Below, in pieces: positions 27,329 through 47,758 of a stretch of 64,000 nucleotides of DNA (its first letter is position 1; each line of letters opens with the position of its first letter). The notes beneath the pieces are model-generated. The model was given only the letters and a program-made list of their open reading frames with translations, did no database searches and had not been told where the DNA came from. The DNA is taken from contig CAXXSR010000001.1 of assembly GCA_963662615.2 (NCBI GenBank), positions 1,440,001 through 1,504,000 on the forward strand, written 5' to 3'. Position numbers and translations under genes: made by a program. This DNA comes from Dehalococcoidia bacterium (GTDB taxonomy: Bacteria > Chloroflexota > Dehalococcoidia > Bin125).

Positions 27329-27805
27329 CTACCCCACCAACCCCAGCCCCCGCAGCCGACGCACCGCCGCCGCCGCCGACACGTCAAACCGGCCCGCCAT
27401 CGCCCCCGCGCTCGCCCGCCCCTCCCGACGCAGCCGCCGCCACTCCGTCCGCACCAGCAACGCCGGCATCAGCAGCTCCGCCGCGAACGCATCGCACAGC
27501 GCCTCTCGCACCGGCGCCCCGAACACAGCGCGGCCATCCAACCCCGCATCGATCAGGACCATATGCCCCAGCTCATGCGCCAGCGTGAACCGCGCCCGAC
27601 GCCGCCCATCGCCACCGTTGAGAATGATCACCCAGCGCCCGCCGATGCGCTGCAGCCCCCCGCGCAGCCCCGAGTGCAGCGCGTCCTCCAGCACTACAAC
27701 GTCGCGCGGCCCCAGCCGCTGCGCGCAGTCCAGCACCGACACCGGCGCGACTGCCCCCACCGGCGCCGCCAGCTGCGCCGCCAGCCGCCGCATCGACTGC
27801 AGCAT
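27329..27805 (-). CDS. ImmA/IrrE family metallopeptidase (anti-repressor-type)
   Basis: RARFTLAHELGH, EALCDAFAAELLMP, FDVS. Confidence 0.9.
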   Translation of the reverse strand: MLQSMRRLAAQLAAPVGAVAPVSVLDCAQRLGPRDVVVLEDALHSGLRGGLQRIGGRWVIILNGGDGRRRARFTLAHELGHMVLIDAGLDGRAVFGAPVREALCDAFAAELLMPALLVRTEWRRLRREGRASAGAMAGRFDVSAAAAVRRLRGLGLVG

Positions 27806-27854
27806 CGGCAACGCTTCCAGCTTGAACTTCCGGCTTGAAACGGTCGGCAAACGG

Positions 27855-28295
27855 TCAGGCGTCCGGCTCGGCCTCGGCCTCGCTCGACTCCAGGAGGCGG
27901 CGGGCGCCCTCGAACGCGTCGTCGATCGATGCGTGGGCGGCGGCGCGCTCCGGCTCGCCCGCATATAGCAGTTCCCAGTCCTCGCGCGTGGCTGGGCGCG
28001 GCAGCATCTCGCGACGCTTCCGCTCAAAGCCAGGGTTGGTGAAGTACTCAATGCTCCGCCCGGTCAGATCGGCAACGCGCTGGAGCGTATGGACGTCTAT
28101 GCCCCGACGCCCGCGCTCAATGTCGGACAGCCAGTTCTTCTTCCGCCCCACCTGCCCGGCCAGCTCCTCCTGCGTCAGACCGGCTCGCTGGCGTGCCTCC
28201 CGCAGCCGGCGCCCCAGCGCGGCGCGGCTCGCGGATGTCACCCGCGCATCCAGCTCCTCGCTGTCGTTCTCGGGCTCCGGCGCCGACGTCGTCAT
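27855..28295 (-). CDS. XRE-family HTH repressor (ImmR/CI-like)
   Basis: LREARQRAGLTQEELA..VG....LSDIERGRR. Confidence 0.9.
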   Translation of the reverse strand: MTTSAPEPENDSEELDARVTSASRAALGRRLREARQRAGLTQEELAGQVGRKKNWLSDIERGRRGIDVHTLQRVADLTGRSIEYFTNPGFERKRREMLPRPATREDWELLYAGEPERAAAHASIDDAFEGARRLLESSEAEAEPDA

Positions 28296-28457
28296 CGCGC
28301 TCCGTCCTCCCCGCTCTCACGGACACGGCTCGCACCTGCAACCGCACCGCGCATCCCCGTCGATCCGCGCCCGCTTGCGGTCCGGTCTCGTGAATGCTAC
28401 CATACATCCGCGATGCGCGAACTCGCAAGCGCCTCGCCCTAGCCCCTGATTCCAGCA

Positions 28458-28814
28458 TTGCCATCGACTCACGATGCGCGCAGACCGGAGCGCCTCGTGA
28501 GTCAACCGTCATTCGACCCTGCCCCTCGCCATCCCCCAGCCCGCCCAGCCGCCACCCCAGCCTCCCTCGCGGCGGCCCATCCGCGAACGACGGCGGCGAC
28601 CCCCTGCCGCCACCGCTGGCATGTCGCCGCCGAGCCCCAAGCCAACGGCTATCCCGCCGCCTGTCGCCGCTGCGGTCGCACCCGCACCTTCCCCCTCGCC
28701 GACGACCTCTACGACTTCAACGAACCGCTGCCGCGCTGGGACGAACTCCCCGGCCTCGGCTGGAGCAGCCCCGACCCCACCGACGCCCTCCACGATCACT
28801 TCGACGTCGCCTAG
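28458..28814 (+). CDS. Small Zn-ribbon protein divergent from the repressor
   Basis: CRHRWHV...ACRRCGRTRTF. Confidence 0.5.
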   Translation: MPSTHDARRPERLVSQPSFDPAPRHPPARPAATPASLAAAHPRTTAATPCRHRWHVAAEPQANGYPAACRRCGRTRTFPLADDLYDFNEPLPRWDELPGLGWSSPDPTDALHDHFDVA

Positions 28815-28878
28815 CGGCGATATCCCCGAGCGACCATGTCCCGAGCGACGATGTCCCCTAGCAACAGCCCCGCACCTG

Positions 28879-29088
28879 CTAGCCGTACGCCCAGCCCTCC
28901 TTGACCAGCAACCGACGACGGATCACGCGCAGCCGCAGATGCGCCCGGCACACCGCCACCCGCACGTCCGCCACCCCCTCACCCCGGCGCCGGCCCTCCC
29001 GCACCGCCCAGCGCCGCACCCACAGCCGCCGCTCTGCCTCCCGCTCGCAGAAATGGCAGCGCCCATCGCCGTCGATGATAAAGAACAT
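28879..29088 (-). CDS. Small basic Cys/His protein
   Basis: CHFC...VCRAH; G-ending codons like other minus-strand genes. Confidence 0.4.
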   Translation of the reverse strand: MFFIIDGDGRCHFCEREAERRLWVRRWAVREGRRRGEGVADVRVAVCRAHLRLRVIRRRLLVKEGWAYG

Positions 29089-29323: not shown

Positions 29324-30223
29324 TCAACCCCGCACCGATGGCCACACCTCCCGAAACACCACCTCCAACTGCCGCAAATATTCGTCCACCGCCAACTTGG
29401 CCCCCGGGTCGTAGCTCGGCATCGACACCCCCAGCCGGCTCGCCCCCGCCTCCCGATAGCCCTTGAACGTGGCGATCAGCCCTCCCACGTCCTCCCGCAG
29501 CGGCGTCGTCCACTGGATCGGAAACGCGTCGGCGTCCCGACCGTTCTTGGCGAGGTGCGCCCTGATCCGCCCGACCGACTCCCTCGCCCCCTCGGGGGAG
29601 ACGCGGCTCAGCCCAATCCAGCCGTCCCCCAGCCGCGCCGCCCGCTCCTCCGCCGCCGGCACGGCCCCGCCAAATAGGATCGGCGGCCCCCCCGGCGTCA
29701 CCGGCTTGGGCAACATGCTCATCTCCCGCACCGTCGTGTACCGACCCTCGAAGCGCACCGGCTCCTCCGACCAACACGCCCGCAACACCGCCACCGCCTC
29801 CTCCATCCGCGACGGCCGCTGCCGGAACGGCGTCCCCAACGACTCGAACTCCGCTTCCTGCCAGCCCATCCCCACCCCCAGCCGGAAGCGACCTCCGCTG
29901 AGGATGTCCAGCTCCGCCGCCTGCTTCGCCACCAGCACCGGCTGCCGCTGCGGCAGCACCAGCACGCTCGACGTTAAAATCAGCCGGCTGCTGCACGCGG
30001 CCAGATACGCCAGCGTCGTCAGCACCTCATGTTGGATCGTGGCGCCCACGTACGGCCCCGCCGCCGGCCGCTCCGCCGACTCGTACGCGTACATCACGTG
30101 GTCGGTGGCCGCGATCCAGTCGTAGCCAATCGCCTCCACACCCTGCACCCAATCGCGCAGCTCGCTCACGTCCAGATCCCAGTGCCAGGCCGGAACCTGC
30201 GCCCCCAACTCCATCGACGCCAT
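29324..30223 (-). CDS. LLM-class F420-dependent oxidoreductase
   Basis: DHV, LVLPQRQPVLVAKQAAELDILSGGRFRLGVG.GW..EF, RAARLGDGW. Confidence 0.92.
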   Translation of the reverse strand: MASMELGAQVPAWHWDLDVSELRDWVQGVEAIGYDWIAATDHVMYAYESAERPAAGPYVGATIQHEVLTTLAYLAACSSRLILTSSVLVLPQRQPVLVAKQAAELDILSGGRFRLGVGMGWQEAEFESLGTPFRQRPSRMEEAVAVLRACWSEEPVRFEGRYTTVREMSMLPKPVTPGGPPILFGGAVPAAEERAARLGDGWIGLSRVSPEGARESVGRIRAHLAKNGRDADAFPIQWTTPLREDVGGLIATFKGYREAGASRLGVSMPSYDPGAKLAVDEYLRQLEVVFREVWPSVRG

Positions 30224-30390
30224 CCGCTGCCTTCCCTCCCCTGCCATTCGGCCGCCTCCCCACGGACCGCCCGATGCTACCAGCGCCCCGCCCCGCCCGC
30301 GCCTACCCACGGCGCTGGCCCAGCCGCTATGCTCAATGCGGACCCGTCCTTTGCGGGAAGGACCGGCCACCCCATCACAACGAGGGCGTC

Positions 30391-30660
30391 ATGCAACTCG
30401 ACGAGCGACATGCTGGCGAAGAAGGTGTCATCCGCAGCGATCTCGCGGAAATGATCGACCGCGCATCGACCATGTCGGCCTACGCCTTCAACGCCTTCAA
30501 CGCCTTCAACGCCGTCGGCGACGCCGGCGGCAAAGGCGCCCGTCCCTTCCCCGACGGCCTCGCCGAACGTCTCGCCGAGCAGACCTACATCGACATCCTC
30601 CGCTACTCCCTAGACGAGTGCTCCTGCCCCTGCCATCAGGACCATCCCTCCCAGCCCTAA
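30391..30660 (+). CDS. Small hypothetical protein with C-terminal CxCxCH
   Basis: ORF with host-like codons; 9-bp gccttcaac x3 microrepeat. Confidence 0.4.
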   Translation: MQLDERHAGEEGVIRSDLAEMIDRASTMSAYAFNAFNAFNAVGDAGGKGARPFPDGLAERLAEQTYIDILRYSLDECSCPCHQDHPSQP

Positions 30661-30697
30661 CGGTTCCACCACCACCCCTCGCATCCGCCGCTCCCGC

Positions 30698-30860
30698 TCA
30701 CCCTGACCTGTCCTTCGCGCAGCAGAAGGAGCCTGTCGAAGGGCCTGAGCTTGCCTGTCCTGAGCCCCGCCGAAGGGCGAACCGCAACACCCCCTCTCCC
30801 TCCCCCCCCGATGGAGAGGGGGCCAGAGCCTGTCGTGAGCCTGCCGAACGAGGGTGAGGT
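30698..30860 (+). repeat. Nested cctgag/gtcgaagg repeat cluster plus ccctctcc...ggagaggg hairpin
   Basis: cctgacctgtccttcgcgcagcagaaggagcctgtcgaaggg and related modules. Confidence 0.85.
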
Positions 30861-31241
30861 CTTAACCCCTCACCGACCTCCTCCGTCTTCGTCGCCCGCC
30901 CCATCGCCTCCGTCACCTCCCTCCGCGAGGGCGATCGCATCCAGCCGGCCACCCCAGCACTGACTTTGGATGAAGACTTCCGGGTTTGGCCGGCGGAGGC
31001 CCGCATCGAGCGGCTCCCCGCCGGCGCCGCCTTCGCCGACCTAGTCGAGGTCGTCTACACCCCCCTCGACGACACGGACCGGCGGCGGCGCGTCCTCCTG
31101 GAGCTCGTCCGCCTCGACCTCGCTCAGAGTGGCCGCGCGGCCGAGGCCGTGGGCAGCGACTACCGCTACCGCGGCTTCAACTACACCCAGCACCGCGAAG
31201 CGCTCCTGCGCGAGGTTCGCCCCTTCCTCACCCTGGAGTAG
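30858..31241 (+). pseudogene. Phage head-tail connector-like gene, probably 5'-truncated by the repeat cluster
   Basis: Frame open from 30858 (VARPIASVTSLREG...RRRVLLELVRLDL...YTQHREALL) with no ATG; first gene of the neck block. Confidence 0.55.
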
Positions 31242-31403
31242 CCGCAATCTATCGCGCCCCTCCCCGGCCATTCGCTCTGGGGCGGGCGGGAACAACAAAG
31301 AAAGCAGCCCCGCACCCACCCGTGACGCCCGGCGCGACAGCGCCGCCGACCACCGCCGTCCCCGAGCAGCAGCTGACTGGGGCGGGTGAGCGGGACAAAG
31401 AAC

Positions 31404-31739
31404 ATGATCACCGGCTTAGTTCACCGTTGCACCATCTGGCAGCCGCAGGGCGCCGCCACCGACGCCTACGGCCAGCCGGCGCTAACGGCCTTCGCCCAGA
31501 CCGCCACCGACGTCCGTTGCCGCTTCGATGGCAAGGAGCAGGACGCGCCGCAGTTGCTGGTCACGGCCACGGCCCCAATCGCCCTCAACGATCGCATCAC
31601 CAACGTGCAGGACCGACGCGGCGCCACCATCGATGCCGGCCCCTTCGCCGTCCAGGAGATCGTCGCGCCCACCGGCCGCGCCGAAGTCGCCTACCGGCGC
31701 CTCACGCTCCGCCGCCTCATCTCCATCGATCAGACCTAA
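31404..31739 (+). CDS. Phage head-closure (stopper)-like protein
   Basis: HRCTI....TDAYGQP....DVRCRF; synteny. Confidence 0.65.
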   Translation: MITGLVHRCTIWQPQGAATDAYGQPALTAFAQTATDVRCRFDGKEQDAPQLLVTATAPIALNDRITNVQDRRGATIDAGPFAVQEIVAPTGRAEVAYRRLTLRRLISIDQT

Positions 31740-31749
31740 CGCCCCCACC

Positions 31750-32000
31750 GCGGACACTCCCGCTTCCCGATGACGACGACTACGCAAGCATCCCCTGCGG
31801 GAGCGAGATCGAAAAAGACGAAGGCCTGCCCGAACCCTCGGGGCGGACGCTCCCGCCCCCGATGACGACGACCACGCAGGCACCCCCTGCGGGAGCGAGA
31901 ACGAAAAAGACGAAGGCCTGCCCGAACCCTCGGGGCGGACGCTCCCGCCCCCGATGACGACGACTACGCAGGGACCCCCTGCGGGAGCGAGAACAAAAAA
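31750..32000 (+). repeat. 92-bp tandem array (about 2.7 copies) with cgctcccgc...gcgggagcg hairpin
   Basis: atgacgacg at 31770, 31862 and 31954; array ends at ATG 32001. Confidence 0.9.
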
Positions 32001-32345
32001 ATGACGACGCTGCGCCTCACACGCTGGCATCCCCAGCCCGCCGTCCAGCTCGTCCGTCGCCGCAGCGACGCCTGGCTCGGCGCCTCCGCCGACCTCGCCG
32101 CCGCCGACGCCCGCGACCGTGCGCCCGTGCGCACCGGCCGCCTCCGCCGCTCCATCGTCGCGCTCCCCCTGCGTCGGCCCGACGGTCGAGCGCGCAGCGG
32201 CGTCTGGGCCCGCGCCCCCTACGCCCTCTGGGTCGAGATCGGCACTCGCCGCATGCGCGCCCAGCCCTACCTCCGGCCCGCCCTCGACGCCGTCCGCGGC
32301 GCCGCCAACACCCTCGTCGCCCTCGCCCGAATCGGTGTGAACTGA
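32001..32345 (+). CDS. HK97 gp10-family phage protein
   Basis: APVRTGRLRRSI, YALWVEIGTRRMRAQPYLRPA. Confidence 0.9.
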   Translation: MTTLRLTRWHPQPAVQLVRRRSDAWLGASADLAAADARDRAPVRTGRLRRSIVALPLRRPDGRARSGVWARAPYALWVEIGTRRMRAQPYLRPALDAVRGAANTLVALARIGVN

Positions 32346-32789
32346 ATGACCCTCCCCCTCGACCCCCTCGAAGCGCTCCTCACCCACCTCCGCGCCGACG
32401 CCGACTTGGCCGCCCTCGTGGACACGCGCATCTACGGCGGCCACCGGCCCGAGATCGCCGGATCGGCCGGCAGCGGCGCCGCCCTCAGCGCCGCCCTGGC
32501 CGACGGATCCGCCCACCCCGACCTCCCCCTCGCCGATGTCCTCGTCGACGTCCGCTGCTGGGGTGGCGTCGGGCCGGACGGGCCCAACCGCGCCGTCGCC
32601 ATCTGGCGCGCCCTCCACGGCGCCCTCAACGTCAGCCACAGCGCCGTCACCGTCTCCGGCGGCAGCGCCCACCTGCTCTGGGCCCTCGAGGATCTGGGCC
32701 CCGCCCTCCTCCGTGACCCCGATACCGGCGAGGCCTTCGTGCGCAGCACCGCTCGCGTCGCCACCGCCAACGCCGCCCTGCCCGCCTAG
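32346..32789 (+). CDS. Tail terminator/completion protein (DUF3168-like)
   Basis: L.ADADLAALVDTRIY, VDVRCWG; synteny. Confidence 0.7.
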   Translation: MTLPLDPLEALLTHLRADADLAALVDTRIYGGHRPEIAGSAGSGAALSAALADGSAHPDLPLADVLVDVRCWGGVGPDGPNRAVAIWRALHGALNVSHSAVTVSGGSAHLLWALEDLGPALLRDPDTGEAFVRSTARVATANAALPA

Positions 32790-32848: not shown

Positions 32849-33403
32849 ATGGTGAAACTCCTGGTCGGCTCCGGCCGCCTCTACGCCCACGCCGAGGGCA
32901 CCGCCATGCCCGCCACCAACGTCGACCCCACCACCGCCGGCTGGATCGATCTCGGCGCCATCGACGGCGGCGTCAGCGCCGAGCGTGAGCAAACGCTCGA
33001 AGAGCACTTCGTCGACCATGAGACCGGCCCCGTCGACGTCAGCCGCGCCGCCGAATCGCTCCTGATCGAAACCAACCTCGCCGAGCCCACCCTCACCAAT
33101 CTGGGCAAGGTGCTCAACAACCTCACCCCCACCACCGACGTCGGCCCCCCCGCCACCGAGACGCTCGCCGGCTATCGCGGCGCCACCGTCGCCAAGCAGG
33201 CGCTCCTCTTCCGCGGCGGCTCGCCGGAGGGCCCCGCCAAGATCGGCCAAACCTACATCCCGCGCGGCTACTTCGCCGGCGACCTCGGCCTCGCGCACCG
33301 CAAGGACGAACAGACCCTGATCCCGGTCGAGTTCCGCGCCCTCGTCGATGAAAACGCCGCCACCGACGCCGAACGCTTCGGCGTCACCGTCTACGAAACC
33401 TAA
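32849..33403 (+). CDS. Major tail tube protein
   Basis: GSGRLY, WIDLGAIDGGV, LAEPTL.NL, IPVEFRAL; position after the terminator. Confidence 0.75.
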   Translation: MVKLLVGSGRLYAHAEGTAMPATNVDPTTAGWIDLGAIDGGVSAEREQTLEEHFVDHETGPVDVSRAAESLLIETNLAEPTLTNLGKVLNNLTPTTDVGPPATETLAGYRGATVAKQALLFRGGSPEGPAKIGQTYIPRGYFAGDLGLAHRKDEQTLIPVEFRALVDENAATDAERFGVTVYET

Positions 33404-33830
33404 CGTGCGCCGCTTCCGCACCCTCCAGCCATCAATGCTCCCCGCACCCGCAGCGGAAGCGTGGTGAAAAAAACGTGCGCCGCTTCCGCACCCTCCAGCG
33501 ATCGATGCCCGCCCGCACCCGCAGCGGAAGCGTGGTGAAAAAAACGTGCGCCGCTTCCGCACCCTCCAGCGATCGATGCCCGCCCGCACCCGCAGCGGAA
33601 GCGTGGTGAAAAAAACGTGCGCCGCTTCCGCTCCCTCCAGCGATCGATGCCCGCCCGCACCCGCAGCGGAAGCGTGGTGAAAAAAACGTGCGCCGCTTCC
33701 GCACCCTCCAGCGATCGATGCTCACCCGCACCCGCAGCGGAAGCGTGGTGAAAAAAACGTGCGCCGCTTCCGCACCCTCCAGATCGATGCCCGCCCGCAC
33801 CCGCAGCGGAAGCGCGGCGAAAAAAACGCC
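33402..33830 (+). repeat. 71-bp tandem array (6 copies) with cgcttccgc...gcggaagcg hairpin and A7 tract
   Basis: aacgtgcgcc at 33402, 33472, 33543, 33614, 33685 and 33756. Confidence 0.95.
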
Positions 33831-33845
33831 TTGCTAGCAGCAGAG

Positions 33846-34448
33846 ATGAAGAGCATGCCCCAGCCCACGCGGAACGCGCACGCTTCCGGCCACCCACACG
33901 ACCGTGACGTCCCACCCGCCCCAGCGGAAGCGCCGTTGAAATACCTCCTCGACCTCGACGCCGGACGCCTCCCCCGTCTCACCGTCCGCCTCGACGACCG
34001 CGACGTGCGCCTGCGCGAGCCCGAGAGCCTCGCCCTCACCGAGGCGCTCCGCTTGGGCGAACTCCTCCGCACCCTCGCCCACGACTCCACCTCGCCGCAG
34101 CAGTTCGACGCCACCGCCGCCGAGATCGTGACCCTCATCGCGCCCCAGCTCGCGCCCCCCACGGAAGCCGCCACCAACGACCGCGCTTCCACTGTCCAAG
34201 CCGCCACGCGCACCTCCGCACCACCGGCCGACGCGATAGCAAAGAACCCGGGGATCGCCAGGCGCATCGTCGCCTTCTACGCCGAGCACCTCGCCCGCGC
34301 CGTCGAGGCCCTGAGCGACGACGGCGGTGCACCCCCTTTTTCGATGCCTCCCACGCCGGCATCGCCTGCGCCCGCGTCGCCGCCCGCTACCGCGTCGCCA
34401 TCCGCGAGCAACTCGCCATGCCAATCGCCGAATGGGCCTGCTACGTGA
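33846..34448 (+). CDS. Tail assembly chaperone (gpG-like)
   Basis: Lies between tube and TMP; contains in-frame slippery C CCT TTT at 34334-34340. Confidence 0.7.
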   Translation: MKSMPQPTRNAHASGHPHDRDVPPAPAEAPLKYLLDLDAGRLPRLTVRLDDRDVRLREPESLALTEALRLGELLRTLAHDSTSPQQFDATAAEIVTLIAPQLAPPTEAATNDRASTVQAATRTSAPPADAIAKNPGIARRIVAFYAEHLARAVEALSDDGGAPPFSMPPTPASPAPASPPATASPSASNSPCQSPNGPAT

Positions 34449-34654
34449 CCGCCCTCCCCCGCCTCGACGCCAAGCAGACCCTCCGCGATGCCGAAGCCGC
34501 CGCGCTCCCCTGGATTACCCCGCGCGACCGCCGCCGCACCGCCGCGCGCTTGCGCGCGCTCGCCGCCATTGATCACCAACCCGTCCCTGGCCCCCTCCAG
34601 GGCATGGCCGTCCGCCACGTCCCCTCGGACCGCAGCCCAAGGAGCCCAGCGTGA
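34334..34654 (+). CDS. Tail assembly chaperone gpGT extension (-1 frameshift frame)
   Basis: -1 frame is open from the slippery site (FDASHAGIACARVAARY...MPIAEW) to TGA overlapping the TMP start. Confidence 0.7.
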   Translation, partial: PFFDASHAGIACARVAARYRVAIREQLAMPIAEWACYVTALPRLDAKQTLRDAEAAALPWITPRDRRRTAARLRALAAIDHQPVPGPLQGMAVRHVPSDRSPRSPA

Positions 34655-35298: not shown

Positions 35299-35512
35299 CG
35301 ACCACCACCGCGCACCCCGATCCCCTGAGGGCGGGTGGGTGGGATAAAGAAAAGGGGGCGGGGCGGCGAACGCCGCCGCCATCGCCCAGATCATCAAGCC
35401 TGGGCGAGCGACGACCACCAACGCGGCGCGCACCCGGATCCACCGCGAGCGCGCGGAAGAAACCAGCTCCTCCCGCGCCCATCGACGGGCGACCGAGCAT
35501 TGAGAAAAACCC

Positions 35513-36396
35513 ATGACCGTCACCTGGACCCCGGCCGGCAGCGCCGCCACCGCCATCCACCAGGACCCACGTTGGGCGCTGCTGGGCATGGGCGGGCACG
35601 GCGCCCCCGACACCCAGATCCAGACCGTCGGCTCCCCCGACCGCGACGAGCAGCTGCCCCTGCACGCGCCCGCCCAGCCCCGCCTCATCACCCTCACCTT
35701 CCGCATCCACGGCGCCACCCTCGCCGCCCTCTTCGCCCCCTGGCGCGACACCGGCCTGCGCGCCCAACCCGGTACCCTCACCGTCACCCTCGCCGACGGC
35801 CGCACCCGCGCCCTCCGCGCCTTTCCCCGCCAGGGGCTGGCCTGGGCCGCTGGTCGCCAGCGCGGCAGCCACACCGTCGAATCTCTCCTCCTGGAAGCGC
35901 CCGACCCTTTCTGGTTCGACCCCACCGTCATCAGCGGCAGCGCTACCGTGCAGGCGCCCGGCCGCCTCCGCTTCACGCCGTGGACGAACTCGGTTTCCCC
36001 GCCGGCTTCGGCAGCGACCTCCCCAGCGCCACCGCCACCCTCAACAACCCCGGCAGCGTCCGCTCTTTTCCCGTCTTCACCGTCGCCGGCCCCGTCGTCA
36101 ATCCCAGCATGCGGCTCGGCGCCAGCGGCCACGTCGTCGCCTTCGCCCTCACCGTCCCCGCCGGCCTCACCCTTCGTGTCATCTGCGGCGCCCAGCCCGA
36201 CGGCAGCGCCGACGCCCCCACCGCCGTCCTCATCGACGACCTCGGCGGCCAGACCGCCACCCTCGGCGCTCTGCGCAGCGGCTCCCGCTTCTGGGCGCTC
36301 GGCCCCGGCGACAACACCGTCATCTTCGCCCAGGACAGCCCCGGCAGCGGCACCGTCGCCCAGCACCAGTTCTTTTCCCGTGAAGTCGCCATCTAG
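35513..36396 (+). pseudogene. Distal tail protein (Dit/Sipho_tail-like) with a single frameshift near 35975
   Basis: PRLITL..., LEAPDPFWF in the first frame; NNPG....PVFTVAGPVVNP and FWALGPGDNTV in the second frame. Confidence 0.75.
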
Positions 36397-36620: not shown

Positions 36621-37967
36621 ATGGCTGAGGAATCCTTCCCCTTCCAGGAACTCGCCGAGGGCGACCGCACCGTCAGCGCCGCCATGTTCGCCAAGCACCT
36701 CGGCGGGATACGGGCGCGCGGCGTGAACTTTGGCGTCGACAATCAACTGCAGGTCACGGAGTCCAGCCCCCAAGCGATGAGCGTCGACACCGGCGCCGCG
36801 TTCGTGGGCCTCACCGAGCAACGCGCCTACCGCAACACGCTCTCGCGGACGGTGCCCATCGCCGCCGCCGACCCCACCGACCCCCGCCACGACCTCGTCG
36901 TGCTGGACATGGACACGGCCAGCGGCGTGCGGACCGTCACGGCGAAGATCGTCCAGGGCACGCCCGCCGCCTCCCCCCTCGACCCCGCCCTGACCCAGAC
37001 CGAGGTGCATTACCAGCTGGCCATCGCCCGCGTGGTCGTGCCGGCGGCGGCGGTCAACATCAAGAACGCCGACATCGCGGACCTGCGCACCTTCAGCACA
37101 CCGCGGAACTTCCCCCAAGCGGTGGAGGTCAACACCTTCCGCCACCAGATCATCCGTACCGGCACGATCGCCAACGGCGACCTCAGCGCCTGCTCCTTCG
37201 AGTTCGACCAGAACAACGGTCCCGTCGCGGATAGCGCCCGACTTTGGTACGGCTCCATCGAGACCACCGGCTGGCAGATCGGCCGCTACAAACGGGACCT
37301 GGTGACAGACGAGTGGTACTGGCCCGGCACTGCCGCCGACACCGACACCCAGACATCGGAAACGAACTGGGTGCAAGGGCAGGGCTGCTTCCAGCACATG
37401 ATCATCAGCGCGACCGAGTACGTGTTCATCTTCGCGATCCGGAACGCTACGCCGCCCTACAACATCGTGGGCCGACGCCTCGATGCCGACACCCTCAGCA
37501 ACACCCCCGTGACGTTGGGGATGACCGGGTTCAACACGCACCAGAGCGAAACATTGTATTCCTTCTTCGACGGCACCTTCCTCTGGATTTACGCTGCGGG
37601 CACGACGCGGACCGTCTACAAGTGCAGTTTCACCGCGACCTCCGTGACCGTCGTGACCAGCTTCACACCCTCCGAGGGACTGACCCTCTTCTTCACGGAT
37701 GGCAGCAACAAGGTCTGGGGCTTCGAGCCCGGAAGCCCTGGTAGCGTTTCCCAACCGCGCGAGGTCCACGAGTACGACTTCGCCGGGGTATTGCAGCAAA
37801 CGCAGCCGTGGTCGCCCGGCATTGGCGTCGATGCCGGTGCCAGCACGCAGGGGCAGATTGGGCGCTTGGGCAACCGCTACTGCATCGCTTCCGGCCTTTC
37901 CGGCTCGGCGCGAATCTCCCCCATTGGTACGGACGTGAACGACATCTTCGGAAATCTGGTGAGCTGA
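36621..37967 (+). CDS. Minor tail/fibre (putative receptor-binding) protein
   Basis: N-terminal SFPF, VDTGAAFV, ADPTDPRHDLVVL, GTPAASP.DP.L, LAIARV, DLR baseplate-anchoring-type module; beta-rich C-terminus. Confidence 0.7.
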   Translation: MAEESFPFQELAEGDRTVSAAMFAKHLGGIRARGVNFGVDNQLQVTESSPQAMSVDTGAAFVGLTEQRAYRNTLSRTVPIAAADPTDPRHDLVVLDMDTASGVRTVTAKIVQGTPAASPLDPALTQTEVHYQLAIARVVVPAAAVNIKNADIADLRTFSTPRNFPQAVEVNTFRHQIIRTGTIANGDLSACSFEFDQNNGPVADSARLWYGSIETTGWQIGRYKRDLVTDEWYWPGTAADTDTQTSETNWVQGQGCFQHMIISATEYVFIFAIRNATPPYNIVGRRLDADTLSNTPVTLGMTGFNTHQSETLYSFFDGTFLWIYAAGTTRTVYKCSFTATSVTVVTSFTPSEGLTLFFTDGSNKVWGFEPGSPGSVSQPREVHEYDFAGVLQQTQPWSPGIGVDAGASTQGQIGRLGNRYCIASGLSGSARISPIGTDVNDIFGNLVS

Positions 37968-38356: not shown

Positions 38357-38399
38357 AGCATGGTGACCGAGCATGAAGATCATTACTCCCGCCGCGGCG

Positions 38400-39200
38400 C
38401 CTCGAGCCCGCAGCCCATCCAGGGCGGGTGGGCGGGCGCACCACAGAACGCAGCGCCGCGCCATCCCCAACCCACCGCGCGACAGCGCGCCCCGTAGCCC
38501 CCGCGCAGCGACCCTCGGGCAGTGGCGCGGCCGGTGCCTAGTCGCCAACCAGCAACCTTCCGGGGTGGGTGGGCGGGAGAAACAAAGAACGCAACGCCGC
38601 GCCATCCCCCAACACCCGGCGCGACAGCGCCCACCCCACTGGCCCGGCCGGGCGGGAACAACACAGAAAGCAGCACCGCGCCATCCCCCAACACCCGGCG
38701 CGACAGCGCGTTCCGCAGCCCCCGCCCCGGCCATTCGCTCGGGGGGCGGGCGGGCAGGAACAAAACAGAAAGCAGCCCCGCCACCATCCCTCAGGCCCGG
38801 CGCGACAGCGCCCACCCCACTGGCCCGGCCGGGCGGGAACAACACAGAACGCCGCGCCATCCCCCAACCCACCGCGCGACAGCGCGTTCCGCAGCCCCCG
38901 CCCCGGCCATTCGCTCGGGGGGCGGGCGGACAGGAACAAAACAGAAAACAGCCCCGCCACCATCCCTCAGGCCCGGCGCGACAGCGCCCACCCCACTGGC
39001 CCGGCCGGGCGGGAACAACACAGAACGCCGCGCCATCCCCCAACACCCGGCGCGACAGCCTCCAACCCACCGCGCGACAGCGCCCCCCGCAGCCCCCGCG
39101 CAGCGACCCTCGGGCAGTGGCGCGGCCGGCGCCCACTCGCCAACCAGCAACCTGCCGGTGTGGGCGGGCGGGACGACAACAACGGCCCCAGCCGTGCCCC
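38400..39200 (+). repeat. Mosaic array of ~85-95-bp alternating modules (ggcgcgacagcg...gggcgggaacaacacagaa), period about 180 bp
   Basis: ggcgcgacagcgcccaccccactggcccggccgggcgggaacaacacagaa three times; related copy at 31255-31345. Confidence 0.9.
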
Positions 39201-39272
39201 CACGCCGCATCATCCTCCGACAGCGGCCCTCGCCGCCGTCGGGACGCCGGTCGCAAGCCCGCTGAGTGAGTC

Positions 39273-40400
39273 ATGGCCATCGAGAACGTCACCCTCTTTC
39301 ACCGCAACGCCCAGCAGGCGATCCTCGCCGTGCGGCCGTTCACCCTACTCGAATGGACCCGTCGCTTCGCCGCCACCGGCAGCTTCCGCGCCGAGCTCCC
39401 CTTCGAGCACGGCCTCCCCGTGCAGGCCGGCGACGTGCTCGACATTGAACTGGACGGCCGCACCGAATTCAGCGGCGTCGTCCAGCTCCGCCGCCTCACC
39501 CACCGCCCCCAGCGCCAGCCCGTCTGGCACTTCCAGGGCATGGACCTGAGCTGGTGGCTGCACCAGCGCGTCATCGTCCCGCCCTCCGGCCAGTCCCACG
39601 ACGAACAGATCGGTGTCCCCGCTGAAGACGCCATCCGCCACTACATCAATGACCACCTCCTCAACCCCACCGATCCGGCCCGCGCCATCCCCGTCCCGGC
39701 CCTCCTCGCCCCCGCCCACGTGCCGCCGCTCGGGCCGGCCGTGACCGTTCGCGCCCGCTACGGGAACTTGGCCAAAGAGATCGACCGCATCGCCGCCCGC
39801 GCCGGCCTCGGCTACCGCGCCGAACGCGACTCGCAAGATCGAATCAGCTTCGCCGTCCTCGCCCCCCGCGACCGCACCGCCACCTCGCCGCAGCCCGTCA
39901 TCTTCGCCACCAGCCTCGGCACCGCCGAAGAGCTGACCTTCACCGAAGCGACCGTGCGCAGCCGCAACGCCGTCTACGTCCTCGGCGACGGCAGCGGCGC
40001 CACCCGCCTGGTCCAGGAGGTCACCGACGCCGCCGACGTCGCCGCCCGCGCCCGCCGCGAGATCGCCCTCGACGCCCGCCAGGCCACTTCCAGCGCCGCC
40101 GCCATCGACGCCGGCGAGACCGAACTCGCCCGCCAGGCCGCCGAGCGCCTGCGCCTGGAGGCCCGGCCGCCCGCGCTCAGCCCCCTCACCTACCGCCTCG
40201 ACTGGGACGTCGGCGACATCGTCACCCTGGACCTGCCCGACCTCTCCCTCCGCCTGGACCAACGCATTGAGGCCGTTCATGGCGCCATCGACTCCGACGA
40301 GCCCTTGTCCCTCTCCTGCTCCTTCGGCGCTCCCAGCCCGGACGCCACCGACGCCCTTCGCCACCTCGACGAGCGCACCGCCCCCGGCCGCTTCGTCTAA
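39273..40400 (+). CDS. Siphovirus ReqiPepy6 Gp37-like baseplate hub (Tal-like) protein
   Basis: LEWTRRF...GSF, ARYGNL, NAVYVLGDGSG..R, RREIALDAR, YRLDWDVGDIVT. Confidence 0.85.
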   Translation: MAIENVTLFHRNAQQAILAVRPFTLLEWTRRFAATGSFRAELPFEHGLPVQAGDVLDIELDGRTEFSGVVQLRRLTHRPQRQPVWHFQGMDLSWWLHQRVIVPPSGQSHDEQIGVPAEDAIRHYINDHLLNPTDPARAIPVPALLAPAHVPPLGPAVTVRARYGNLAKEIDRIAARAGLGYRAERDSQDRISFAVLAPRDRTATSPQPVIFATSLGTAEELTFTEATVRSRNAVYVLGDGSGATRLVQEVTDAADVAARARREIALDARQATSSAAAIDAGETELARQAAERLRLEARPPALSPLTYRLDWDVGDIVTLDLPDLSLRLDQRIEAVHGAIDSDEPLSLSCSFGAPSPDATDALRHLDERTAPGRFV

Positions 40401-42119: not shown

Positions 42120-42419
42120 ATGGACATCGCCGCCATCGCCACCGCCCTCGCCGGCCTGCTCGCTGCCCTCGCCCAATGGGCCTGGCTCGTGGGCCCGCGC
42201 CGCAACGGACAGCGCGCCCGGCTGCACACCATTGAGGCCCGCCTCAGTGAGACCGAGAACGCCCTCCACCATTGCCTCCGCAGCCTCCACCGAGTCCGCC
42301 GCCGCGAGCAGCGACGGTGGCAACAGCTCAGACAAAGCGGGCGCCTCTCGCCCCATGACCCCATCCCAGAGCCGTCCTCCTCATCGCTCGACTCTGGAAG
42401 CGGCCGGGCCGCGTCGTGA
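42120..42419 (+). CDS. Small TM + coiled-coil lysis-cassette protein (holin-like)
   Basis: N-terminal TM, RLHTIEARLSETE; upstream of the amidase. Confidence 0.5.
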   Translation: MDIAAIATALAGLLAALAQWAWLVGPRRNGQRARLHTIEARLSETENALHHCLRSLHRVRRREQRRWQQLRQSGRLSPHDPIPEPSSSSLDSGSGRAAS

Positions 42420-42694
42420 GCGTGCCCAACGGGGCTGAGCGCCTCCACCCACCCCCAAGACCGCCGCGCCCAGCAAGCCCGCCGCGAGCGCGCGCTGAAT
42501 AAACCCGCTCACGCTGAGCCTGTCGAAGGGTCGCCCCGCCCTGTCCTTCCCTCCCAGGAAGGAGCCAGTCGAAGGACAAACGGTACCCCCTCCCACGCGC
42601 CCGGCGCGAGCGCCCATCAACCCCGCGCCCGTCCGGACCAACCGCGAGCGCGCGTGGAAAAACCGCGAGCCCGCGCGAAAAAGGAGCCCAGCCC

Positions 42695-42928
42695 ATGAAC
42701 CCCTTCGCCAAATGGAACAGCCGCCTCGTCGCCGTGACTCTGAGTGGCATCTCCACCCTCGCGGCGCTGCCGGACCTGCCCCCCGACCTCCGTGCCGTCG
42801 GCATCGTCGTCATCGCCAGCGTCGGCATCATCATGATCGGCCTGCGCGACGTCCTCGGCCGCCGCGAAGCCCTCCACGACCTCGGCCTCGACCACCCCCT
42901 CCCGCAATCCGACATCCCGGAAGCATGA
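42695..42928 (+). CDS. Putative holin (2 TM, 77 aa)
   Basis: KWNSRL, two hydrophobic helices, IGLRD; RBS aaggag. Confidence 0.6.
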   Translation: MNPFAKWNSRLVAVTLSGISTLAALPDLPPDLRAVGIVVIASVGIIMIGLRDVLGRREALHDLGLDHPLPQSDIPEA

Positions 42929-43437
42929 TCGACACATTGAACACGCATCACCCGACCATGAAGCCCCGGCGCGAGCCGCAAAAACCGCTCACCCAGAGCC
43001 TGCCTGTCCTGATCCTTCCCGGCGGGAAGGACGAAGGGTCGAAGGACGAACGGCCGCAACTATCCATACCCCCATCCCTCCGGGGCGGGTGGGCGGGACA
43101 AACAAAAGACGCAACGCCGCCCGCCTCCCCAAGGCCCGGCGCGAGCGGCCACAACCGTTCGCCCTGAGCCAGTCGAATGGGCGAACGACGCACCCAGCCA
43201 CCAACGCCGCGTCCGACCATGAAGCCCGGGCGCGAGCAACCACCAACCCCGCGCCCATCCGGACCCGCCGCGAGCGCGCGTGGAAAGAACCGTTCGCCCT
43301 GAGCCAGTCGAATGGGCGAACGGCGCACCCGGCCACCAACGCCGCGCCCGACCATGAAGCCCGGGCGCGAGCGGCCACCAGCGCCGCCTACGACCGGACC
43401 TACTGCGAGCGCGGGCAAAAAACGCACGCAAACAAAC

Positions 43438-44151
43438 ATGAACCCAAACGACGTCACCCGCCCCAGCCCCAACTTCTACGCCGGCCGCCTCGGCGCACAG
43501 ATCATCGGCGTCACCCTCCATTCCACCCGCGGCGGCACCTCTGATCCCGCCGTCGAGTTCAGCGCCGCCCTCAACTGGCTCAGCGGCCACACCTACAAGG
43601 GCCGCGACGGCCGCAGCCATCGCAACCCCTCCATCCATTACATCGTTGGCCACGACGGCCGCCTCGCCACCGTCGTGCCCGAGCGCCACGGCGCCTGGCA
43701 CGCGGGCACCGGCAGCCGCCGCGACGGCGCCAACCTCAACGCCATCGGCATCGAGCTCGTCCAGCCCACGCCCCAGGACGCCTACCCGGAGCCACTGCTC
43801 GCCCGCACCGTCGACCTCGTCGCCGCCATCTGCCGCCGCCACGCCATCCCCGCCCTCCGCGTCCACACCGACACCCAACCCGGCATCCACCACCACAGCG
43901 ACCTCAACCCACGCAAGTCCGACCCCGGACCCCGCTGGCCCGACGCCGACTTTCTCGCCCGCATCGACGCCCGCCTCGCATCGGCGCGCGACCGCCCGCC
44001 GGCCGCGGCGGACCCGTCCATCCTTCGCCGTCTCCTCCAACTCCAGCGCACCCAGACCGGCCACGCGGCCGACATCGACGCCCTCCGCCAAGGGCTCGCC
44101 CAGACACGAACGCGCCTCCACGCGATTGGCAAAGCCGCCCTCGCCGATTGA
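43438..44151 (+). CDS. N-acetylmuramoyl-L-alanine amidase (endolysin, Amidase_2-like)
   Basis: SPNF, LHST, SIHY, AWHAG, N.NAIGIE, HSDL..RKSDPG. Confidence 0.92.
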   Translation: MNPNDVTRPSPNFYAGRLGAQIIGVTLHSTRGGTSDPAVEFSAALNWLSGHTYKGRDGRSHRNPSIHYIVGHDGRLATVVPERHGAWHAGTGSRRDGANLNAIGIELVQPTPQDAYPEPLLARTVDLVAAICRRHAIPALRVHTDTQPGIHHHSDLNPRKSDPGPRWPDADFLARIDARLASARDRPPAAADPSILRRLLQLQRTQTGHAADIDALRQGLAQTRTRLHAIGKAALAD

Positions 44152-44172
44152 TTCATCCTGGAAAGATCGAGC

Positions 44173-45467: not shown

Positions 45468-45923
45468 ATGCCAGTCACCGCGTATTGGTACGCCAAAGCG
45501 TTCGTCAACGTCTTCACCCGACTCAAGAACATCGACTACGACACCAACGCCGTCAAACTAATGCTCACCACCAGCGCCTACGTCCCCAACCAGGACACCC
45601 AGGAGGACAAGGCGGATGTGACCAACGAGGTCACCGGTACCGGCTACACGGCCGGCGGCGAGACCCTCGCCTCCAAAACTCTCTCCAACACCAACAACGT
45701 CGTCACCCTCGACGCCGCCGACGTCACCTGGAGCAACAGCACCATCACCGCCCGCCGCGCCGTCCTCTACGACGACAGCGGCGCCACCGACGCCGACAAA
45801 GCCGTCCTCCTCTGGATTGACTTCGGCCAGGACGAATCCAGCAGCAACGGCGACTTCACCGTCCAGTGGAACGCCTCCGGCATCGCCACGGTGACCCCCA
45901 CCGACGCCGCCGGCTTCCCCTAG
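45468..45923 (+). CDS. Phage minor tail/virion protein
   Basis: IDYDT..VKLML, NEVTGTGYTAGG, LDAADVTW, DFG....SNGDFTVQW. Confidence 0.75.
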   Translation: MPVTAYWYAKAFVNVFTRLKNIDYDTNAVKLMLTTSAYVPNQDTQEDKADVTNEVTGTGYTAGGETLASKTLSNTNNVVTLDAADVTWSNSTITARRAVLYDDSGATDADKAVLLWIDFGQDESSSNGDFTVQWNASGIATVTPTDAAGFP

Positions 45924-45930
45924 CCCGGCC

Positions 45931-46401
45931 ATGCCCCCGTCAGGCTTTCGCTGGGCCGTTCAGTACTGGCACGGCCCTTCCCCCCAAGGGCCGCTGCCCA
46001 CCTTCACATCGCGTGACGGCCCCTGGGCCAACGCGCCCGCGCAAAACGTCATCCGTGTCCTCCTCCAACGGCACGGCATTCGCCCCCATGGAAACCCGGA
46101 CGTGCTCTACACCCAGACCAAAGAGGGGCCCGACCACTACTACCTGATCGTCGCCTCCGACGCCGTCCGTCTCGGCGGCTGGAACGACGACGGCCGCCCT
46201 TCCCACGAGGTCACCTGGCGCGCCGACGGGCGAATCTTCAACGTCCGCCGCCACGCGCCCCCCGCCCTCGACCCTGCGCAGCTGAAGCATGGCGTCTGGG
46301 TCGACGAGCCCTGGGCCACCCGCCTCGGCCTCTCCGGCGGCATCAGCCGTCAGGAGTGGCAAAGCGCTTCAGCGCGGGAAGGCGCCCTGAACGATGGCTA
46401 A
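45931..46401 (+). CDS. Hypothetical phage protein
   Basis: 156-aa ORF coupled to neighbours; GVWVDEPWA. Confidence 0.55.
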   Translation: MPPSGFRWAVQYWHGPSPQGPLPTFTSRDGPWANAPAQNVIRVLLQRHGIRPHGNPDVLYTQTKEGPDHYYLIVASDAVRLGGWNDDGRPSHEVTWRADGRIFNVRRHAPPALDPAQLKHGVWVDEPWATRLGLSGGISRQEWQSASAREGALNDG

Positions 46402-47404
46402 GCTCTTCCTCCGCGACACCTCCGTCGAGAGCTGCGCCGACGGCAGCTCCGGCTTCGACATGGACCCCACCCAGGGCTCCCCCACCGCCGACGTTTCCGC
46501 CTCCGTCAACTCGGCCACGTTCACCGAAGTCCTCACCTGGGACGAGACCGTCGGCACGAACGGAAAGAGCGGCGACTACGACCTCAGCGTCGACGTCTCC
46601 ACCCTCAGCACCGACGCCGAGTTCCGCTTCCGCCTCCAACGCCTCAACGCCGCCTGTGCGGTCCAGGAGAGCAGCGCCTACGGCCCCACCTTCAACACCG
46701 TTGGCATCGAGACCGCCACCATCACCTTCAGCCCCGCCTGGGCCGCCAACGACGTCCTCCGCCTCTCACTTGAGCTGCGCCGGAGCGGCGGCCACGGCTC
46801 CCGCTCCATCAGCGTCAGCACCCAGGACCCAGACAGCTTCACGGACGAGCCCGCCGACCCCAACGTCACCATCCTTGCCGTCGCCGCCCAGGCCACCGCC
46901 GACGTCCTCGCCCCTGCAATCAAGGCTGGCGCGACGGTCGCCGCCGCGCTCGCCGCCGCCGCCGCCCAAGCCCTCCTCCCCACCATCAAGATCGCCAAAA
47001 CCGTCGCGCCACCCGCCGCCTCCGCGACTGCGCACGCCCCCTCCCCCACCATCGCGGCGATCCAGAACGTCACCGTCGCCGCGCAACCGGCGCAAGCGGC
47101 CGCGGACACCCTCCTCCCCACGATCGCCGCCGGCATCGCCATCGTTGCCGCCCTTGCGCAGGCCGCCGCCGGCGCCCCCCCGCCGGCCGTCCTCGCCCAG
47201 AGCGGCGGCATCGTCATCCTCGCGGCGCTGGCCACCGCCACTGCCACCGGGCACGAACCCGCCATCGGCGGCTACCTCGATCTCACCGCCACGCTCACCC
47301 TCGTCGCCTCCCTGTCCGCCGCCCTCACCGCCACCGCCACCGCCTCGCCCTCCGCGACCCTCGCCGCCGCCGACGCTCCCAGCGCCACCATCGAGAGGAT
47401 CTAG
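46394..47404 (+). CDS. Putative virion fibre/structural protein with Ala-rich repeats
   Basis: Beta-rich N-domain followed by A..A.A..LLPTI-type repeats. Confidence 0.55.
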   Translation: MAKLFLRDTSVESCADGSSGFDMDPTQGSPTADVSASVNSATFTEVLTWDETVGTNGKSGDYDLSVDVSTLSTDAEFRFRLQRLNAACAVQESSAYGPTFNTVGIETATITFSPAWAANDVLRLSLELRRSGGHGSRSISVSTQDPDSFTDEPADPNVTILAVAAQATADVLAPAIKAGATVAAALAAAAAQALLPTIKIAKTVAPPAASATAHAPSPTIAAIQNVTVAAQPAQAAADTLLPTIAAGIAIVAALAQAAAGAPPPAVLAQSGGIVILAALATATATGHEPAIGGYLDLTATLTLVASLSAALTATATASPSATLAAADAPSATIERI

Positions 47405-47407
47405 CCC

Positions 47408-47758
47408 ATGGCCACCGCCACGGTCGATCTCGCCACCCCCTTCCAGCAGTACGACAACGCCCAGCTTCTCCTCACCGTCCAGGACGGCAGCGGCGCCGCC
47501 CGCGACATCACCAACGACCGCGTCATCTTCCACATCGACGGCCTCAACCTGACCAAGGACTCCGCCAACGGCGCCGCCGAAGTCGACAAGACCGACCCGG
47601 TCAACGGCCAGGCCACCATCAAGATCGACCCCGGCGACCTCGCCCTAGACGCCCCCGGCGCCTACCAATACGAAGTCGTCATCATCGCCGTCGGCGTCCG
47701 CGCCACCGTCGTCCAAGGCGCCCTCACCACCGACCCCTCCCTCATCACCACCACCTGA
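47408..47758 (+). CDS. BppU N-terminal-like baseplate protein
   Basis: DPVNGQATIKIDPGD...PGAYQYEV......TVVQG. Confidence 0.6.
   Translation: MATATVDLATPFQQYDNAQLLLTVQDGSGAARDITNDRVIFHIDGLNLTKDSANGAAEVDKTDPVNGQATIKIDPGDLALDAPGAYQYEVVIIAVGVRATVVQGALTTDPSLITTT

Follow-up and report, generated by a model that had tools for sequence, protein, structure and literature searches.

A probable head-deleted remnant of a vertically inherited, phage-derived head-tail-lysis cluster in a Dehalococcoidia genome

To our knowledge, each gene transfer agent (GTA) described so far derives from a phage that was domesticated independently, and GTAs are known from few lineages. PBSX of Bacillus subtilis is a fixed defective prophage that carries an Xre-family repressor gene together with terminase, head, tail, holin, and amidase genes and cannot propagate. 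Defective prophages of enterobacteria, the subject of work by Bobay, Touchon and Rocha in 2014, reportedly occupy orthologous sites and have ratios of nonsynonymous to synonymous substitution rates (dN/dS) of <1. The Listeria monocin, an F-type tailocin, combines a regulator pair with a headless, noncontractile tail and with holin and lysin genes. Here we analyzed a 64,000-nucleotide stretch of a Dehalococcoidia genome (the window; G000 C1:1440001-1504000), in which XRE and ImmA regulator genes, siphovirus-type tail genes, and lysis genes form a locus without head genes. A first-pass annotation of the window had named this headless locus a candidate new tailocin- or GTA-like system. We find it likely that the locus is a decaying, head-deleted remnant of a phage-derived head-tail-lysis cluster that has been inherited vertically.

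The complete form of this cluster, which is found in related genomes, resembles RcGTA of the Alphaproteobacteria in being a compact head-tail cluster with no nearby integrase gene and no replication genes between its flanks, inherited vertically across genera. It differs from RcGTA in phylum and structural lineage (the nearest IMG/VR capsid from outside the clade is 33% identical) and in having lysis genes and the XRE/ImmA pair in or beside the cluster; moreover, the G000 copy has no head genes at all. The relatives' cluster has kept its place and its integrity across divergence at the genus level, a signature reported of head-tail clusters of GTAs (PMC10883770). Of the features by which GTAs are recognized, the relatives' element has a cluster of head, tail, and packaging genes, no self-propagation genes were found in it, and it shows vertical descent and purifying selection; head and packaging genes are missing from the window.

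For the relatives' gene layout, PBSX as generally described would be the nearest analogy, although its tail is contractile and its cluster much larger, unlike those of the relatives' element. The G000 copy is closer in outline to the monocin, with its regulator pair, headless noncontractile tail, and holin and lysin genes, and with a distal tail protein (Dit) model that matches a monocin tip chain. The monocin is nevertheless a complete and conserved tail machine, whereas in G000 the Dit gene is broken, the connector gene is truncated, and headlessness is recent and unshared by relatives. Compared with the enterobacterial defective prophages, the element spans several genera and retains a whole head-tail-lysis set rather than scattered genes.

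The cluster in related genomes

We fetched eight loci from relatives in three other genera (40 to 70 kb around six of them; two were added afterwards), namely, G004 of genus g5, G009 of g10, and G008, G015, G020, G023, G079, and G080 of g9; the G079 locus is cut by a contig end. In all eight, the genes from neck to lysis are in one order and have the same chromosomal neighbors: on the left, genes for an acyl-CoA dehydrogenase (76 to 81% identity) and a monooxygenase; on the right, a 350-amino-acid open reading frame (ORF; 55 to 62%) and an inositol-phosphate synthase gene (83 to 87%). The left flank of G009 has been relocated about 300 kb away. In the better-preserved relatives, the leftward genes are arranged as XRE, ImmA, a small ORF, and the monooxygenase. 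Rightward, a small ORF is followed by a thioredoxin-like gene, TerS, TerL, cargo, portal, protease, HK97-type capsid, and connector genes and then by tail completion, tube, G/GT chaperone, very short tape measure, Dit, fibre, Tal-like, holin, and amidase genes. The head genes belong to recognizable families (TerL, PF17289 [Terminase_6C]; portal, PF04860, 6e-69; S78 prohead protease, PF04586, 1e-25; HK97-type capsid, PF05065, 6e-65). From TerS to amidase, the G080 cluster measures 14.4 kb. The XRE, ImmA, monooxygenase, and thioredoxin-like genes may be parts of the element or only its neighbors.

Among 64 other genomes of the family, the capsid gene was found in 9 (six of seven in g9, one of one in g10, one of one in g5, and one of three in g2) and in none of the 52 genomes of g6, g7, g3, g8, and g4; the three genomes of the clade without a capsid match are 84 to 94% complete. 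Homologs of the Tal-like protein (56 to 68% identity) were detected in 7 of 24 genomes of the same family, whereas 16 genomes representing other families of the class had none. In element-free genera, either a distance of 84 kb or more separates the two outer flank genes or an ortholog of the left one is missing.

Maximum likelihood trees were built from two concatenations, one of six tail proteins (1189 columns) and one of six flank proteins (1492 columns); they had the same topology, ((G000,G009),(G004,((G020,G080),((G015,G008),G023)))), with 100% support at the deep nodes of both trees and 84 to 98% at the within-g9 nodes of the flank tree. For five within-g9 pairs, the synonymous divergence (dS) of element genes (0.06 to 0.53) overlapped that of flank genes (0.07 to 0.36). 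In the same pairs, dN/dS was 0.06 to 0.5 for 13 of 15 element genes (e.g., capsid, 0.06 to 0.21; portal, 0.19 to 0.28; TerL, 0.19 to 0.43; tube, 0.09 to 0.30; Tal, 0.14 to 0.27) and 0.03 to 0.42 for flank genes; the exceptions were the chaperone gene (approximately 1, in overlapping frames) and the fibre gene (0.46 to 0.68). Across genera, the element proteins are 60 to 80% identical, as are those of the flanks.

Examination of 37 matches to the tyrosine integrase family (PF00589) in five relatives placed none within 140 kb of the block. Between the conserved flanks, we found structural, lysis, and cargo genes only, with no integrase, replication, or lysogeny module; serine recombinases and transposases were not searched for genome-wide. 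In IMG/VR, there was one close relative of the capsid (75% identity, on a 9.5-kb contig), the next being 33% identical, and a search with the Tal alignment found none.

Because the element tree equals the flank tree, dS resembles that of the flanks, dN/dS is low, and no integrase gene lies nearby, we conclude from these sequence comparisons that the clade-wide element is vertically inherited and under purifying selection, in the manner of a GTA or PBSX. The synteny, dN/dS, and gene-tree comparisons that the first-pass annotation had called for thus found the block present and conserved in relatives and congruent with its flanks, in agreement with its view of a long-resident, host-adapted element that is no ordinary recent prophage.

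An old, fixed, functionless defective prophage undergoing slow erosion throughout these very GC-rich genomes could account for some of the lesions seen in the clade. G009, the sister of G000, is also eroded (a TAA stop in the capsid gene, a frameshift in the tail completion gene, and neither holin-2 nor amidase), and the Dit gene of G015 is frameshifted; in addition, stop codons are rare at 95% GC at third codon positions (GC3), so that ORFs would stay open by chance. It is, however, the amino acid sequence that has been kept and not merely the frames, as seen in the dN/dS values and in cross-genus identities like those of the flanks. Five of the seven full-length loci (G004, G020, G080, G023, and G008) showed no disruption among the compared element genes. 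We consider slow decay everywhere unlikely.

A more specific proposal is that the TerS-to-amidase cluster, with XRE/ImmA, is in at least g2, g5, g9, and g10 an independently domesticated, host-controlled particle system of siphovirus type, which the gene comparisons make plausible but, in our judgment, not quite probable. Such a system would be an agent like a GTA or PBSX, with an unusually short tape measure (approximately 104 to 215 amino acids), and as far as our searches show no other has yet been proposed in Chloroflexota. Among the papers listed in text searches on GTAs of Chloroflexota or Dehalococcoidia and on tailocins of Chloroflexi, none describes such an element in its title or in the opening of its abstract. 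The element thus offers a concrete, testable GTA candidate in uncultured, high-GC genomes labeled Dehalococcoidia, and it is the intact relatives, more than the G000 copy, that would be candidates for a new domesticated phage-like particle.

Variable cargo was observed between TerL and portal. In G020 (L014 6308-10814), it includes a HigB/HigA-like pair, an RNase_T exonuclease gene, and two Fic-domain genes, and in G080, <1 kb separates TerL from portal; the site behaves as an insertion hot spot within a conserved cluster.

Head loss and decay in the G000 copy

The G000 genome (2.66 Mb; 68% GC; two contigs; 93.6% complete) yielded no match in its whole length to any of six head and packaging families (PF05065, PF04860, PF03354, PF17289, PF03237, and PF05133). 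A tblastn search with a relative's TerS, TerL, portal, capsid, and post-capsid genes found no ortholog at an E value of 1e-3, the sole match being a 27%-identity TerS at C1:1,906,775, far outside the window. The window has no tyrosine integrase gene, and the nearest of 18 matches in G000 is about 140 kb away. The first-pass annotation, which had recognized no terminase, portal, capsid, or integrase gene, holds genome-wide for the head genes and to a distance of about 140 kb for the integrase. Its suggestion that an F420 luciferase-like monooxygenase gene sits in the place of the head module does not, because this gene is a conserved left neighbor in the head-bearing relatives as well (50 to 57% identity at the same place in all eight).

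None of the eight relatives' loci is headless. In the interval bounded on the left by the small ORF next to the monooxygenase gene and on the right by the connector gene, relatives have the thioredoxin-like, TerS, TerL, cargo, portal, protease, and capsid genes and one more head-tail gene; G000 has a 200-bp gap with a repeat. Since relatives carry a full head module at the same site, the sequence comparison indicates that the headless state of G000 is derived, by a deletion of about 12 kb. The right breakpoint falls inside the connector gene, and a dispersed host repeat of about 150 nucleotides lies at the junction. As the earlier annotation had noted, the connector is truncated: alignment with seven relatives, whose proteins begin MPLLT, shows that the ATG and the first 48 or so codons are missing, that homology starts at approximately 30858 to 30882, and that the sole remaining start is a TTG at codon 36. 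Read depth peaked at the junction repeat in four of four metagenome runs (bin 30702-30935). None of the contigs listed for these runs bridges the junction, because the contigs break at the dispersed repeat. Contigs of runs X7 and X8 match only from 30877 rightward, with 200 unmatched letters upstream, at the deletion breakpoint.

The Dit gene carries two lesions. A 1-nucleotide deletion at approximately 35974 to 35975 causes a frameshift, evident in DNA alignments, and the site is covered by contigs of all four runs, each from a different study, for none of which an indel was reported at that position; it is therefore not an assembly error, with the proviso that one of the four runs may be the source sample. 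A 30-nucleotide deletion after 35729 removes 10 residues, 8 of which are invariant in six intact orthologs; X7 and X8, two of the four runs, still hold a 30-nucleotide insertion at this point. In the called tail frames, 20 single-base strain variants were found (14 nonsynonymous and 6 synonymous), one of which, in run X7, changes a tryptophan codon of the tail completion gene to a stop at 32605. With 3,294 nonsynonymous and 1,224 synonymous sites, the ratio of nonsynonymous to synonymous polymorphism (pN/pS) was 0.87, a value that fits neutrality (P = 0.47) but does not fit an omega of 0.25 (P = 0.007); after removal of four low-quality calls, it was 0.82 (11:5; P = 0.02).

Taken together, G000 has what is expected of a cryptic remnant: a head deletion of about 12 kb, a cut connector, a broken Dit, a nonsense allele, and a pN/pS of about 0.87. 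We propose that a phage-derived cluster became part of the chromosome of an ancestor that several genera in this high-GC family share and has since descended vertically. Selection would most likely have maintained the ancestral element for producing particles under host control, in the manner of a GTA or PBSX, a role suggested by its conservation. The G000 lineage would then have lost about 12 kb, extending from the thioredoxin-like gene to approximately codon 48 of the connector; a dispersed host repeat now lies beside the junction. The 1-nucleotide Dit frameshift and, in part of the population, the 30-nucleotide deletion of invariant residues would have followed; intergenic gaps would have gained repeats, and a foreign phage fragment would have been added 3' of the amidase gene. 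Selection has probably ceased to act on the tail and lysis ORFs that remain, which would still be open because, measured against the branch of the lineage, the loss is recent.

Several observations weigh against this account. The polymorphism test used 20 variants from low-depth metagenome contigs and covered tail genes only, with no host-gene control, and pN/pS within populations is inflated even in functional genes. The G000 terminal branch is not lengthened in the tail tree (0.208, versus 0.297 in the flank tree), and, the connector and Dit genes aside, every tail or lysis ORF is open and has a strong host-like codon bias; selection therefore acted until recently and might still be acting on some genes. 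The X7 and X8 strains may carry a different junction or still have the head module. Finally, the relatives are mostly metagenome-assembled, and we suspect that some are long-read assemblies, in whose case the single frameshifts (G015 Dit, G020 monooxygenase, and G009 tail completion) could be assembly errors. Given the unlengthened terminal branch, the loss of constraint in G000 is, on this reading of the tree, recent.

A working F-type tailocin of the monocin kind, with the tail, XRE/ImmA switch, holins, and amidase retained for killing after loss of the head, is an improbable alternative for the G000 copy. Its regulator pair, noncontractile tail module, and lysis cassette without head genes fit that description, as do mostly open ORFs with host codon bias, an intact G/GT slippery site, a branch that is not accelerated, and the match of the Dit model to monocin tip chain 9j1k_K (E value, 1e-5). 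Dit is, however, the hub of siphovirus-type tail tips, and in G000 its gene is frameshifted in contigs of all four runs, with no X XXY YYZ heptamer around the break (read by eye, with no scan), and lacks 10 residues. The tail completion gene has a stop in one strain, and pN/pS is close to the neutral value. Repeat arrays of 0.3 to 0.9 kb part genes that abut in relatives, and headlessness is recent and derived. Of the marks of an F-type tailocin, then, the copy has headlessness and its own lysis and regulator genes but neither a complete tail set nor a headless state maintained by selection. The Dit break stands in the reads and dN/dS is near 1 within the lineage, both of them outcomes that the first-pass annotation had named as refuting; its proposal of a new tailocin or GTA is not supported for the headless copy.

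That independent temperate prophages have used one hot spot, the G000 copy being a routine cryptic remnant, is very improbable: prophage hot spots are common, and the genes present are those of the late region of a siphovirus, with variable cargo between TerL and portal, but the element and flank trees agree, dS is the same in both, no integrase lies within 140 kb in five relatives, no replication or lysogeny module lies between the flanks, and IMG/VR holds one close capsid (the 9.5-kb contig) and no match to Tal.

If the relatives' element is a domesticated system, the G000 locus would be a derivative that lost its head naturally and that illustrates how systems of this kind come to an end. 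As a head-deleted remnant, the G000 copy would amount to a natural experiment, dating head loss and showing both the tail erosion that came afterwards and the invasion by repeats of an operon freed from selection. It also carries a warning for annotation: a headless tail locus can be the product of a recent deletion and not a tailocin.

Gene content of the locus

Genes in the window were called from the GC content at each codon position and from a codon model, for which 697 long ORFs of G000 served as the training set, because mechanical ORFs are abundant at high GC; owing to the high GC content, there were 193 of them between 24 and 52 kb of the window. In the called frames, GC3 was 0.80 to 0.94 and codon log-odds were positive, confirming the host-like codon bias that had been noted. 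Family scans and synteny likewise bore out the gene set first reported (XRE/ImmA, neck, tube, chaperone, tape measure, Dit, fibre, Tal, holin-like, and amidase; Table 1), although the names chaperone, tape measure, Dit, fibre, and holin-like rest on position, synteny, the -1 slippery site, and the Dit fold match.

Table 1. Features of the G000 locus (window coordinates)
Feature	Position	Strand	Evidence
ImmA/IrrE-like M78 metallopeptidase	27329..27805	-	Pfam PF06114, 1.1e-13
XRE-family helix-turn-helix (HTH) regulator	27855..28295	-	Pfam HTH_31, 6.7e-16; HTH_3, 1.7e-11
Small conserved ORF, left block	28879..29088	-	tblastn, 58 to 68% identity in 6 relatives; no family match
Luciferase-like monooxygenase	29324..30370	-	Pfam Bac_luciferase, 6.3e-52
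Small conserved ORF, precedes Trx9-TerS in relatives	30274..30660	+	tblastn, 52 to 70% identity in 8 relatives; no Pfam family
~150-nt repeat copy at deletion junction	30686..30828	.	Covered by up to 40 high-scoring segment pairs from outside
Head-tail connector gene n1, 5'-truncated	30858..31241	+	Alignment with 7 relatives
Gene n2 at neck/head-closure position	31386..31739	+	45 to 55% identity, syntenic in 8 of 8 relatives; no Pfam or PHROG family
92-bp tandem repeat, 3 copies	31766..32041	.	Runs into start of gp10-like gene; locus-specific by blastn
HK97 gp10-like/Neck1	32001..32345	+	Pfam PF04883, 1.6e-8; phrog_5, 1.2e-19
Tail completion protein (gp17-type)	32346..32789	+	Weak PF11367 (0.0024) in G000
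Tail tube	32849..33403	+	phrog_2175, 3.6e-15; weak PF25681; 70 to 78% identity in relatives
71-bp tandem array, 6 copies	33370..33866	.	Between tube and chaperone; locus-specific
Tail assembly chaperone G/GT	33897..34654	+	G ends at 34448; slippery CCCTTTT at 34334; -1 frame open to 34654
Tape measure, 215 amino acids	34651..35298	+	Named from position between chaperone and Dit
Dit (putative), broken, two frames	35510..36396	+	DNA alignments; fold model of intact G020 ortholog
Fibre/receptor-binding-type protein	36621..37967	+	phrog_9534/1220, 5e-28, residues 66-222 of stop-to-stop ORF
Noncoding repeat field: 176-bp tandem, 3 copies, and ~80-nt G-rich units	38357..39272	.	No coding signal; locus-specific
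Tal-like minor tail protein (Sipho_Gp37)	39273..40400	+	Pfam PF14594, 4.4e-45; phrog_538, 5e-50
Small membrane protein ORF	40930-41430	+	
Holin-like small membrane protein 1	42120..42419	+	One hydrophobic stretch (translation read by eye)
Holin-like small membrane protein 2	42695..42928	+	Two hydrophobic stretches (translation read by eye)
N-acetylmuramoyl-L-alanine amidase (endolysin)	43438..44151	+	Pfam Amidase_2, 3e-23; 16 PHROG families, 15 in lysis category
Phage-derived block, G000-specific	45468..47758	+	phrog_644, 3.7e-31; phrog_1084, 1.5e-5

Left of the deletion, the XRE and M78 genes are intact in G000, and the pair adjoins the block in seven of eight relatives, G009 having no such pair at the locus. 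The XRE gene is 64 to 77% identical and in the same place in seven relatives. ImmA orthologs (49 to 62% identity) adjoin the element in G004 and in all seven g9 genomes; orthologs with >50% identity are restricted to the element-bearing clade (G004, seven of seven in g9, and partial in G009 and G010), and ImmA-like domains of other genera are just 35 to 39% identical, within proteins of about 400 amino acids. The listed ORF of the M78 gene extends to 28051, its first 80 or so codons overlapping the XRE gene out of frame. The last gene left of the deletion is the small ORF that ends at 30660.

In the tail module, the gp10-like/Neck1 gene is present in G009 and G004 and was not found in the six g9 loci, and the G020 ortholog of the tail completion protein clears the PF11367 cutoff (29.7 bits). 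The frame switch in the chaperone gene is visible in the codon plot, and the heptamer CCCTTT[CT] is kept in nine of nine genomes. In eight of these, the -1 extension is 104 to 107 codons long and ends at the tape measure start; G004 has the heptamer, yet its -1 frame is 180 codons and overruns that start. The tape measures of G009 and G004 (also 215 amino acids) align with it from end to end at 43 to 45% identity; in g9, the protein is about 104 amino acids long (G020 copy at L014 17312-17623), with both ends retained and the middle absent. By the rule of about 0.15 nm per tape measure residue, tails of only about 15 to 30 nm are expected.

For Dit, a sequence profile of six orthologs found no relative of solved structure. 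In a Foldseek search with an AlphaFold model of the intact G020 ortholog, all 11 matches at E values of ≤0.001 were chains of siphophage baseplates or of Dit (Douge, Bxb1, TP901-1, SPP1 Dit, the monocin tip, NF5, and 80alpha). Because confidence in the model is low (predicted local distance difference test [pLDDT] score, 52.8), these fold matches do no more than support the putative assignment as Dit. The fibre protein shares with relatives a conserved N-terminal anchor (the first 165 or so amino acids, 64 to 71% identity) and has a divergent C terminus.

Among the lysis genes, homologs of holin-like protein 1 directly follow the Tal gene in G009 and G004. Holin-like protein 2 (58 to 63% identity) is encoded immediately 5' of the amidase gene in six relatives, and the amidase itself is 58 to 61% identical in six relatives. 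In G004, the holin-like 2 gene is repeated in tandem, with three copies spaced about 562 bp apart from start to start (41466-42820 of the oriented 60-kb locus), making it the second genome with expansion by tandem duplication in this operon.

Beyond the amidase gene, the region from 45.4 to 47.8 kb had been credited with further virion genes, but it is specific to G000 and lies outside the conserved block. Its four ORFs encode a phrog_644 protein and proteins of 156, 336, and 116 amino acids, with no homolog in the relatives' loci or in 64 other genomes of the family. The first shares 52 to 54% identity with proteins from phages of Gordonia, Caulobacter, and other hosts, and in the record of the satellite phage MiniFlayer, its homolog directly follows the major capsid gene. 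The region is probably a fragment of a second phage or of a satellite. The 336-amino-acid ORF (46394-47404) was considered as an unrecognized capsid gene and is disfavored: its product appears to consist of an N-terminal domain and Ala-rich repeats, with no homolog in relatives.

Repeats and flanking stretches

The first-pass annotation had described host repeats in the gaps between genes. This holds for the dispersed unit of about 150 nucleotides, which occurs in the locus at 30686-30828, 40615-40766, 41498-41671, 41802-41984, and 43152-43311 (i.e., at the deletion junction, 3' of the Tal-like gene, and in the vicinity of the holin genes) and in 48 clusters outside it on both contigs, most densely at C1:361-380 kb and C1:1887-1901 kb. 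The unit carries short hairpin-like cores. The description as host repeats does not hold for the 71-, 92-, and 176-bp arrays and the unit of about 80 nucleotides, which are confined to the locus. The gap between the tube and chaperone genes is only 37 to 58 bp in G020 and G004. From connector to amidase, G000 spans 13.2 kb, versus 7.5 kb in G020, the excess consisting of a longer fibre gene, two G000-specific ORFs, and repeats.

Tight G-quadruplex-type motifs (G3N1G3N1G3N1G3) were observed on the plus strand at 35329, 38422, 38563, 40419, 41700, 43083, 44524, and 44890. All eight are in the sense orientation, intergenic, and within the locus-specific repeat of about 80 nucleotides, which is laid out as a C-rich run, a G-rich core, and an A-rich run. 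On both strands of the 2.66-Mb genome, there are just 24 motifs of this class, so that 8 of 24 fall within these 10 kb. No convincing conserved secondary structure was found for the 80-nucleotide repeat (-5.3 kcal/mol; compensatory change in one of eight pairs). The relatives' regions are nearly devoid of such motifs; G004 has one just 5' of the amidase gene.

Rfam searches at the gathering threshold gave no matches across the window, and ARAGORN found no tRNA gene that could mark an attachment (att) site. Stretches of lower GC content (0.60 to 0.64) lie on both sides of the region, at 22000-27300 and 47759-50370 of the window. The left stretch has a weak coding signal and an SDR-like ORF; the right one contains a DUF6941 ORF (48363-48839, minus strand) and a weakly NikA-like ORF (49107-49490). 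The two stretches may be separate islands.

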